Assembly: GCA_964579345.1 (NCBI GenBank)
Contig: CAZOHB010000001.1
Span: 1-39,267 of the forward strand
Direction: 5' to 3'
Length of the DNA stretch: 39,267 nucleotides
Origin: an uncultured Parasporobacterium sp.
GTDB lineage: Bacteria > Bacillota > Clostridia > Lachnospirales > Lachnospiraceae
Part shown: one piece after another, positions 7,266 to 8,879 of the stretch
Layout of the letters: every line of letters begins with the position of its first letter
Numbering within the stretch: position 1 is the first letter of the stretch
Program-made: the position numbers and the translations under genes
Notes under the pieces: generated by a model
The model's input: only the letters and a program-made list of their open reading frames with translations
Database searches by the model: none
What the model was told of the DNA's origin: nothing

Positions 7266-8879
7266 ATGTCAAATAAAACAGTTTATGGAAACGAGAACAG
7301 GGCAGCTCTTAGGAGAGGTGTGGATTTGCTTGCGGATACCGTAAAGGTAACACTGGGGCCAAAAGGAAGGAACGTTGTATTGTTCCGGTTAGACAGAACC
7401 CCTTTAGTGACAAATGACGGTGTTACGATTGCGAAAGATATCGTTCTGGCAAACGGGAACGAAAACATGGGTGTTGCCCTTGTCAGTCAGGCAGCAATGA
7501 AAACGAATGATATTGCCGGGGACGGGACGACAACATCGATCGTTCTTGCTCAGGCGATGATAGACGAGGGAGAAAGAGTTATTGCAGCCGGCTCCAATCC
7601 AATACAGCTGCGGATCGGAATGCAGAAAGCCTGTGAAAAGGCGCTTGCTTTTTTAGATCGGGGAAAAAAGGAAATTCTGGATAGTGAACAGGCGGAACGC
7701 ATTGCCATTACTTCTGCCGGTGATGAGGAAACGGGGAAAATCATTGCTAAAACATTGGAACAGGTGACACTGGACGGATCAATTACCATCGACGAATCCA
7801 AAACAATGGAAACCACGATTGATTACGTCAAAGGAATGTCGCTTGAAAGAGGATACATTTCTCCATACATGTGTTCCGATTTTGACCGCGGCGAAACAAT
7901 AATGAAAAATCCTTACATTCTGCTGACGGATAAAGTGATCAAAAAAGCGGAAGATCTGCTACCACTTTTGCAGCAGGTCGTTGCGGCAAAAGGAGAACTG
8001 TTTATAATCGCTGATGATGTAGCTGGGGAAGCTCTTGCAATGCTTCTGGTGAATCGAAGAAAAGGCATATGTCAGTCCGTTGCCATAAAGGCTCCTCTTT
8101 TTCTTGAAAGAAAAGCGGATATTTTAAGAGATATTGCTGCTCTTACCGGTGGCGTGTTCATTGGAGAAGATACCGGGATGGAATTAAATACCGTCGATAT
8201 ATCTATGTGTGGCAGAGCAAGGCAGGTGATCGTTGACCGACAACGCACAGTGATCGTTGACGGGGCCGGTGATAAAACAGAAATCGAAAACCGCATCAAA
8301 ACGATACGACATCAATACAAAACTACAGATATGAATTATGATAAAGAAAAAATCCTGGATCGCCTGGCGCGAATGACCGGAGGCATCGCTTTGATTCATG
8401 TCGGCGCAAATTCGGATGCGGAATTACGAGAGAAAAAAATGAGAATGGAAGATGCATTGGCTGCAACAAGAGCTGCGATGGAAGATGGAATCATTGCAGG
8501 CGGCGGCGCAGCATATATTCATGCATCAAAAGAGGTCTCGGATTTTGCACAAACTCTTGAAGGAGATGAAAAAGTCGGTGCTAAGATTTTTGCAAAAGCA
8601 TTAGAGGCTCCGCTATACCAAATCTCTGAAAATGCGGGGCTGGACGGCAAAGTTATTGTCAATAAAGTGAAAGAGCAGCCTTTTGAAATCGGGTTTGATG
8701 TAATCAGCGAAAAGTTGGTCAACATGATTGATCAGGGAATAATTGATCCGGTAAAAGTAACAAGAACCGCTCTGATAAATGCTACCAGCATTGCTTCAAC
8801 ATTTTTGACAACGGAACTTTCTGTTGATCGGGTAGTTGATCCCAATGCGGAATTTATGGGACCTCCTCCAAGTATGTAA
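7266..8879 (+). CDS. groL: Divergent group I chaperonin (GroEL/Cpn60) paralog with no adjacent GroES
   Basis: The 537-aa protein is colinear with GroEL. It carries [34 protein letters not shown] and [12 protein letters not shown]. The start codon is 17 nt after the MFS stop codon. The C-terminus ends ...[11 protein letters not shown] instead of the usual GGM repeats. Confidence 0.85.

Follow-up and report, generated by a model that had tools for sequence, protein, structure and literature searches.

A divergent GroEL homologue in a predicted transporter-amidohydrolase operon on a low-GC island of an uncultured Parasporobacterium sp.

The DNA analyzed here (the window, 39,267 nucleotides (nt)) covers positions 1-39,267 of the forward strand of contig CAZOHB010000001.1 (assembly GCA_964579345.1) from an uncultured Parasporobacterium sp. 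(Lachnospiraceae). It contains a gene for a divergent group I chaperonin of the GroEL/Cpn60 type (537 amino acids (aa), positions 7266-8879, plus strand), which is regarded as a xenolog on grounds of composition and synteny. The preceding gene encodes an MFS transporter (6058-7248, plus strand; PF07690, 116 bits) and the following gene an amidohydrolase-2-like TIM-barrel metalloenzyme of 411 aa, here called AH_B (9012-10247, plus strand; PF04909, 31 bits). The chaperonin open reading frame (ORF) starts with ATG, and a G-rich Shine-Dalgarno-like sequence (GGGGGGG) is located 7-13 nt upstream. Between the stop codon of the MFS gene (7248) and this start there is a gap of 17 nt (7249-7265), and a spacer of 132 nt (8880-9011) separates the chaperonin from AH_B, the start of which is preceded by a strong Shine-Dalgarno sequence (AAGGAGG). 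A preliminary description of this DNA had reported a full-length Cpn60 homologue at these distances from an MFS and an amidohydrolase-2 gene, which is confirmed by the coordinates and by the Pfam and TIGR02348 matches. All motifs quoted there were found in the translation of 7266-8879.

No terminator-like hairpin was found in the 17-nt or the 132-nt gap, nor from the GroEL stop codon up to the intergenic stretch behind AH_B, in which the terminator scan identified an intrinsic terminator-like hairpin with a 15-bp stem (10288-10324, plus strand). This hairpin marks the predicted operon end and the right edge of the genomic island described below. The few weak hairpin matches (5-7 bp) in the span are confined to the three coding sequences, the nearest to the 17-nt gap being a 6-bp match at 7149-7163 within the MFS gene. 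The fold of the 132-nt spacer is no more stable than that of shuffled sequence (z = +0.68), and scans for Rfam families, tRNAs and RNA folds revealed nothing in the window or the spacer. Since the gaps contain no terminator and the spacer is unstructured, the MFS, GroEL and AH_B genes look like one operon (6058-10247), with MFS as first and AH_B as last gene, and are predicted to be co-transcribed.

All sequence criteria tested place the chaperonin in the Cpn60/GroEL family. The protein scores above all curated cut-offs, with 232 bits for PF00118 (Cpn60_TCP1; cut-off 34 bits), 629 for TIGR02348 (cut-off 582) and 628 for NF009487 (cut-off 352). The TIGR02348 cut-off is cleared by a small margin, and three canonical Clostridia GroELs score 804-842 with this model. 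GroELs from the PDB match at E-values of 1e-133 to 1e-150. The protein is collinear with residues 7-529 of E. coli GroEL (in a sequence version consistent with the PDB alignment ranges) apart from two 1-residue indels, one deletion and one insertion. The equatorial-intermediate-apical layout of GroEL is present without a lid-like insertion, and owing to this collinearity the chaperonin has no built-in lid. Membership in two other groups of the Cpn60/TCP-1 superfamily was rejected, as the scores are far under the respective cut-offs: chlamydial GroEL2/GroEL3 (GroEL3_Chlamy 222 and GroEL2_Chlamy 138, cut-off 600 each) and the thermosome-like chaperonins of group II/III (105-119, cut-offs 400-671).

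Individual residues were compared in an alignment of the chaperonin with E. coli GroEL and 119 canonical best matches (E. coli numbering). The ATP/Mg site is identical to the canonical one (T30-G35, D52, D87-T91 (GDGTTT), D398, G414-G416, I493 and D495). The apical groove, which binds substrate and the mobile loop of GroES, is unchanged at Y199, S201, Y203, M204, L234, L237, L259 and V264 and conservative with L263. The residue alignment thus bears out the earlier statement that the ATP-site signatures and the apical hydrophobic residues are intact. Partners of the allosteric salt bridges are kept or conservatively swapped (R197 with E386D, D83 with K327R), and the same holds for most inter-ring contacts. 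Firmicutes-type states are present at N51, M204 and Y452.

In other parts the protein is strongly changed. It shows 43% identity to E. coli GroEL and 54-56% to the nearest canonical GroELs. Canonical Clostridia GroELs are 70-99.8% identical to one another (median 84%) and 56-62% identical to E. coli GroEL. A three-point relative-rate comparison gave a branch of 0.54 substitutions per site for the paralog vs 0.13, i.e., about 4 times longer. Ultra-conserved positions were defined by a conservation of at least 95% in the canonical set together with identity in E. coli; 75 of these 253 positions (30%) are replaced. The replacements are more frequent in the apical and intermediate domains (51 of 140) than in the equatorial domain (23 of 111; Fisher p = 0.008). 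The conserved KAPGFGDRRK loop, already described as mutated in the preliminary description, carries G280L, G282L, D283E, R285K and K286A, so that F281 stands between two leucines. Further changes affect the N-terminus (K4N, K7V), GroES or substrate contacts (E238Q, T261M and R268K, which are secondary GroES contacts), the cavity wall (E255A and an N at position 359) and neighbours of the adenine pocket (N479D, A480V, A481I, I150T). The net charge is -13 compared to a canonical mean of -20. The open 1.6-kb ORF and the distribution of kept and exchanged residues speak for a working ATPase that is under altered constraint and against a pseudogene.

The C-terminal tail (…EFMGPPPSM) is not Gly-Met-rich and has no terminal GM/MM, while the nearest canonical GroELs end with …PGMGGMM. 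The earlier claim that the GGM tail is replaced therefore holds for the loss of the terminal GM/MM. It was overstated in other respects, as the nearest canonical tails are short as well and the length and hydrophobic character of the tail are kept. Because the nearest canonical Clostridia GroELs also have no long (GGM)4M tail, the difference is modest. The Gly-Met tail marks housekeeping copies rather than the whole family (PMC11978752).

To the housekeeping groESL class the chaperonin does not belong, judged by groES, by the HrcA operator CIRCE (an inverted repeat that controls chaperone expression) and by vertical inheritance. A tblastn search of the window with GroES of E. coli and B. subtilis gave a best E-value of 1.7, in agreement with the earlier observation that no GroES-like ORF occurs in the window. 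The sole "GroES-like" Pfam label in the window was assigned to an ADH_N domain; the protein concerned is a zinc alcohol dehydrogenase (12805-13815) and no co-chaperonin. Directly upstream of the chaperonin lies the MFS gene and not groES. With up to 3 mismatches allowed, no CIRCE was found in the window. In the positive control, a near canonical GroEL (P0006), the gene is located 19 nt after groES, and a perfect CIRCE is present (4392-4418 of locus L089). The three-domain layout, the ATPase residues and the apical groove are common to this copy and the canonical, HrcA/CIRCE-controlled groES-groEL of Lachnospiraceae and Clostridia. The latter has KAPGYGDRRK, groES, CIRCE and a GM/MM tail end, whereas the present copy has none of these and lies on a foreign island.

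This low-GC island (1-10330) carries the whole cluster, and its left edge is located beyond the start of the window. The GC content at third codon positions (GC3) of the seven genes in 566-10247 is 0.34-0.43, compared to 0.52-0.73 for the ten native genes to the right. With a GC3 of 0.398, the GroEL copy is like the island and unlike the host. At the right island edge (around 10,300) the GC content climbs from 0.44 to 0.49-0.54. An assembly chimera at this GC jump was ruled out, since two independent assemblies run across the junction. In the closest relative (UvrA 95% identical; GCA_045127615.1, locus L087) the order uvrB-uvrA-rhodanese/PP-loop-ADH (alcohol dehydrogenase)-DUF1980 is kept and followed by unrelated genes; the island is missing downstream of uvrA at this syntenic site. 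By composition and synteny the island is horizontally acquired. From the foreign GC3 and the absence from the syntenic site of the relative it follows that the chaperonin arrived together with the island and did not arise by a recent duplication of the host groEL. Integrase or transposase genes were not seen in the visible part of the island. A phage or plasmid origin of the chaperonin was rejected, because the best matches in the phage collection (54%) and the plasmid collection (51%) are no closer than chromosomal GroELs.

The flanking housekeeping genes mark the host as a member of the Lachnospiraceae, and the sample names point to ruminant gut metagenomes. For the host UvrA, graded relatives were found at 95, 94, 93, 92, 89 and 87% identity, the named matches being Lachnospiraceae and Parasporobacterium metagenome-assembled genomes (MAGs). 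The foreign composition, the absence from the closest relative and the fourfold longer branch indicate an extra, non-housekeeping copy and strongly imply that a canonical groESL is present elsewhere in the same genome. These findings, together with the missing groES and CIRCE, agree with the earlier view of a divergent extra copy inside a catabolic-type operon.

Relatives of the chaperonin were sought among about 15 billion proteins, in a database of 5.8 billion clusters and with an exhaustive HMMER search of 1.84 billion cluster representatives. In the former, only the gene itself and one allele (T49I) exceed 57% identity. In the latter, the chaperonin is its own representative (50% clustering level) and no other representative exceeds 51%. 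Nothing was found between 100% and 57%, in contrast to the graded series for UvrA. No paralog clade and no orthologues were detected in the sampled genomes, and the nearest relatives are canonical GroELs at 57% or less. The Cpn60 phylogeny proposed in the preliminary description was calculated by neighbour-joining. In 70 of 100 bootstraps the copy is nested within the canonical GroELs of Lachnospirales, most often together with P0006, and in the other 30 it is basal to them, a placement that is only roughly resolved and may be affected by a long-branch artefact. The gene was found on five contigs, which come from at least four samples and match the window at 99.6-100% identity. Sister contigs are ERZ28019072:k141_473966 and ERZ28655012:scaffold_7012. 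The sole allelic difference, T49I (L085, 830-2443), lies in the conserved TNDGVT segment beside the catalytic D52.

On the other side of the operon, a second amidohydrolase-2-like paralogue, AH_A (4552-5820, minus strand; 35% identical to AH_B), is transcribed divergently. Between AH_A and MFS-GroEL-AH_B lies an AT-rich divergent promoter region (5821-6057) with imperfect palindromes. Inverted repeats at 5864-5921 lie in this region, and its palindromes might represent a LysR box, which is putative. A LysR-family regulator with HTH_1 and LysR_substrate domains, presumed to be inducer-responsive, is encoded at 3383-4312 (minus strand). A promoter scan was no better than chance (28 sites vs 24.5 expected) and no promoter is claimed.

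For AH_B, 156 homologues were detectable. For the surroundings of AH_A and AH_B homologues, 80 loci with about 1.07 Mb in total were analyzed, which come from GTDB species representatives and metagenome contigs (about 70 genomes other than the present one). Recurring components are the AH_A and AH_B pair, a LysR regulator, a TRAP, MFS or SSF transporter and sometimes a URO-D-family gene. Pyrogallol-hydroxytransferase-like molybdoenzymes also recur near the AH genes, in one case next to genes for SDR, 3HCDH and BKACE that resemble those of the phloroglucinol pathway (PMC10470551). Judged from these recurring partner genes, the AH module thus appears to be a conserved catabolic unit for polyphenols or hydroxy-aromatic acids, to which the chaperonin is a one-off addition. 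The LysR regulator, the carboxylate-type transporter and the molybdoenzymes that are usually located next to AH family genes suggest a step in anaerobic polyphenol or hydroxybenzoate breakdown.

AH_A and AH_B represent two subfamilies, which often occur together in Clostridia, Actinomycetota, Chloroflexota and Desulfobacterota (loci L010-L084). The Bathyarchaeota MAG JAGLRI01 contains 17 separate AH loci (L030, L040, L041, L043, L046-L051, L055-L057, L060, L064, L074 and L080), and two Dehalococcoidaceae MAGs contain four each (L024, L025, L029, L033, L034, L037, L070 and L075). The metal ligands of AH_B (HxH, H170, H201 and D266) are invariant across 26 homologues. Its AlphaFold2 model shows a TIM barrel with a predicted local distance difference test (pLDDT) score of 90.8. 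A fold search returned distant matches of the Amidohydro_2 type with template modelling (TM) scores of about 0.45, namely salicylate and 2,3-dihydroxybenzoate decarboxylases, ACMSD, the LigI lactonase and TatD. When the PDB sequences were searched with a profile of the amidohydrolase family, nothing matched. AH_B is probably an enzyme for a hydroxy-aromatic acid, either a non-oxidative decarboxylase or a hydrolase. As there are only distant fold matches and no PDB sequence match, the reaction stays a guess.

Two further island genes encode an MFS transporter (566-1900, plus strand) and a URO-D/MtaA-like protein of 411 aa (1967-3202, plus strand), both identified by domain matches. The URO-D-family protein shows weak similarity to the MtaA/CmuA methylcobamide methyltransferases, and there is no corrinoid protein gene nearby. 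A homologue with 34% identity is located about 7 kb upstream of an AH_B homologue in a sheep-gut Lachnospiraceae MAG (L010, 1675-2931). At 3255-3297, between the URO-D-like and the LysR gene, there is a perfect hairpin with a 20-bp stem and T-runs on both strands, a bidirectional terminator. Contigs of two other assemblies begin at positions 3206 and 3238 of the window; the segment left of the hairpin may therefore vary among strains. A Cys-rich ORF (MSFYSCRGCPRRCGV...; 1-252, minus strand) is cut off by the left window end, so that just its N-terminal 84 codons are seen. It is probably another island gene, as it is still low in GC. In the right part of the window, two giant ORFs were found on the minus strand, 21079-26079 (1666 aa) and 26411-34192 (2593 aa). 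The former contains nine BspA-type leucine-rich-repeat stretches and a Big_2 domain, the latter only a C-terminal Big_2 match. Both products are probably cell-surface adhesins.

Chaperonin genes without a linked groES have been described inside catabolic operons before. The GroEL-like genes mmoG, mimG and bmoG are located in or by operons of soluble di-iron monooxygenases. Their products are thought to fold or assemble the enzyme of their own cluster, presumably with a lid provided by the housekeeping GroES (PMC9324122, PMC11825192). The present gene shares with them a GroES-less Cpn60 homologue inside a catabolic enzyme operon. It differs in the Lachnospiraceae host of strict-anaerobe type, in the amidohydrolase-2-like TIM-barrel neighbours and in a linkage that was found only once, whereas recurrence underpins the MmoG, MimG and BmoG cases. 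All top matches of the chaperonin are canonical GroELs. Judged by these matches, a common descent with MmoG-type proteins is unlikely, and the resemblance would be organisational or functional only.

Extra chaperonins with tails that are not Gly-Met-rich are widespread and often specialised. Additional chaperonin genes are found in about 30% of bacterial genomes, in many cases with no client known (PMC5904260, PMC11978752). The paralogues of Actinobacteria, rhizobia, myxobacteria and cyanobacteria are likewise extra copies with a non-Gly-Met tail, faster evolution and presumed narrower client ranges, and some were horizontally acquired (PMC5904260, PMC11978752). In contrast to them, the present copy has no orthologues in the sampled genomes. 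In Firmicutes, the multiplicity described in a review consists of type I together with archaeal-like type III chaperonins, and its cases include no catabolic operon with a second type I copy (PMC5904260). Such a copy is thus unusual for this phylum.

The explanation that we prefer, with a confidence somewhat short of an even chance, is that of an accessory chaperonin borne by the island, which would be expressed together with the transporter and the amidohydrolase, use the GroES of the host and assist the TIM-barrel enzymes of the island. In this scenario the chaperonin would have arrived on a low-GC island for aromatic-acid or polyphenol catabolism. The MFS-GroEL-AH_B transcript would be controlled probably in a substrate-dependent manner via LysR, and not in a heat-shock-dependent manner via HrcA/CIRCE. 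The protein would form ATP-hydrolysing rings of the GroEL type, borrow GroES from the canonical groESL locus of the host and help to fold or assemble AH_B and AH_A. The remodelled cavity and apical surface may be tuned to these two enzymes. AH_A and AH_B are predicted TIM barrels of 411-422 aa (about 47 kDa each), and TIM-barrel proteins of 30-60 kDa are the class most enriched among GroEL-dependent proteins of E. coli (PMC9860312). Both are reasonable clients in principle, because size and fold match this class. AH_B is regarded as the most likely client and AH_A as a candidate second one.

Several observations weigh against this explanation. The chaperonin is known from a single strain-level population, and its alleles differ at 1 of 1614 nt, so that an estimate of the ratio of nonsynonymous to synonymous substitutions (dN/dS) from the five near-identical contigs has no power. 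None of the 80 loci around AH_A and AH_B homologues contains a Cpn60 gene, and the linkage is thus unique to this strain. Relatives of AH_B with 65-71% identity have just a LysR regulator and a transporter nearby, which indicates that the AH enzymes do not generally need a private chaperonin. The substitutions K4N, K7V, A480V and N479D and the two Gly-to-Leu exchanges could impair assembly or nucleotide binding instead of tuning specificity. The AlphaFold2 model of the chaperonin (28 sequences; pLDDT 61, predicted TM (pTM) score 0.45) is too poor to be interpreted. In addition, the groESL locus of the organism's own genome is implied by the evidence from the window and was not observed.

The recurrent linkage between a paralog clade and the neighbouring genes, named in the preliminary description as a touchstone of its proposal, was accordingly not found: there is no such clade. 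The client-dedicated role suggested there is plausible for this one strain and has no comparative support, since the gene is a singleton. The LysR regulator, proposed as another client, found no support.

A bolder version of the preferred explanation sees a private type I chaperonin on a mobile island, with the cavity loop (G280L/G282L, E255A, T261M) and the nucleotide pocket (A480V) remodelled for the amidohydrolase pair. Such a chaperonin might even work without GroES. It would be the first GroEL of this dedicated kind, both for Firmicutes and for the anaerobic metabolism of polyphenols or aromatic acids, and would form with the enzymes a self-contained cassette by which the pathway can function in a new host. 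We regard this version as unlikely.

The main rival is a generalist spare chaperonin that hitch-hikes on the island without a specific client, its position between the MFS and AH genes being accidental. It would add folding capacity, e.g., for foreign low-GC gene products in a new host or under substrate stress. A canonical type of groove and ATP site is what such a copy would have, the amidohydrolase family does without a linked chaperonin in every other sampled genome, and the extra chaperonins of the roughly 30% of bacterial genomes cited above often have no known client (PMC5904260, PMC11978752). However, the gene is tightly embedded in an operon (17-nt gap) and not stand-alone, and it has no stress operator. 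Its strongly accelerated evolution is atypical of generalist copies, and the concentration of its substitutions on apical, intermediate and cavity surfaces is what a changed range of clients would lead one to expect. We therefore consider the generalist role doubtful, although it deserves serious attention.

Improbable is a role other than cage-mediated folding (moonlighting), e.g., as a holdase, as a scaffold for assembly, as a surface or secreted factor or in regulation, maybe in the form of a lower oligomer. Lower oligomers have been reported for some mycobacterial GroELs. The changed assembly and adenine-pocket residues (K4N, K7V, A480V, N479D, A481I) and the loss of the Gly-Met tail end would fit such a role, and atypical paralogues elsewhere have non-canonical functions (PMC5904260). 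In contrast, all catalytic residues, the allosteric salt-bridge partners and most inter-ring contacts are preserved or conservatively replaced, for which it is difficult to account unless the ATP-driven cycle is under selection. The protein is collinear with GroEL and has neither a signal peptide nor an added domain. The moonlighting role considered in the preliminary description is possible, but nothing points to it.

The chances are slimmer still for a decaying or functionless copy that drifts under relaxed selection and is not yet interrupted. The very long branch and the loss of 30% of otherwise invariant residues are what decay would produce, and the occurrence in one strain with alleles too alike for a selection test is compatible with it. 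On the other hand, the 1614-nt ORF has remained open at about 45% divergence, and the Shine-Dalgarno sequence and the operon position are intact. The ATP-site residues and the groove are preserved while the substitutions cluster elsewhere, indicating constraint. That the gene is the sole housekeeping GroEL, with groES elsewhere in the genome, is hardly credible: only the window was seen, and a GTDB species-representative scan with an amidohydrolase query did not return the organism (best match 72%), but against this stand the foreign composition, the absence from the relative's syntenic site, the missing CIRCE, an identity of at most 57% to any GroEL (vs 70-99%, median 84%, among canonical Clostridia GroELs and relatives at 95% for the host UvrA) and the report that bacteria with several chaperonins always keep one Gly-Met-tailed copy (PMC11978752).

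The weight of the finding is limited, because it comes from one strain and the function is read from sequence. If the paralog is tuned to the amidohydrolases, the concept of operon-encoded private chaperonins (MmoG/MimG) would apply to a new class of enzymes and to anaerobic Firmicutes of the gut as well. The paralog would then be a natural example of a chaperone that travels with the genes it helps to fold in horizontal transfer, an "enzyme plus folding helper" cassette. The chaperonin is also a possible co-expression partner for the production of an amidohydrolase family that is linked to the breakdown of polyphenols of the pyrogallol and phloroglucinol type in rumen and sediment microbes. 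For the GroEL family itself, this heavily substituted yet constrained sequence shows which "invariant" positions tolerate change, e.g., the two glycines of the KAPGFGDRRK loop.

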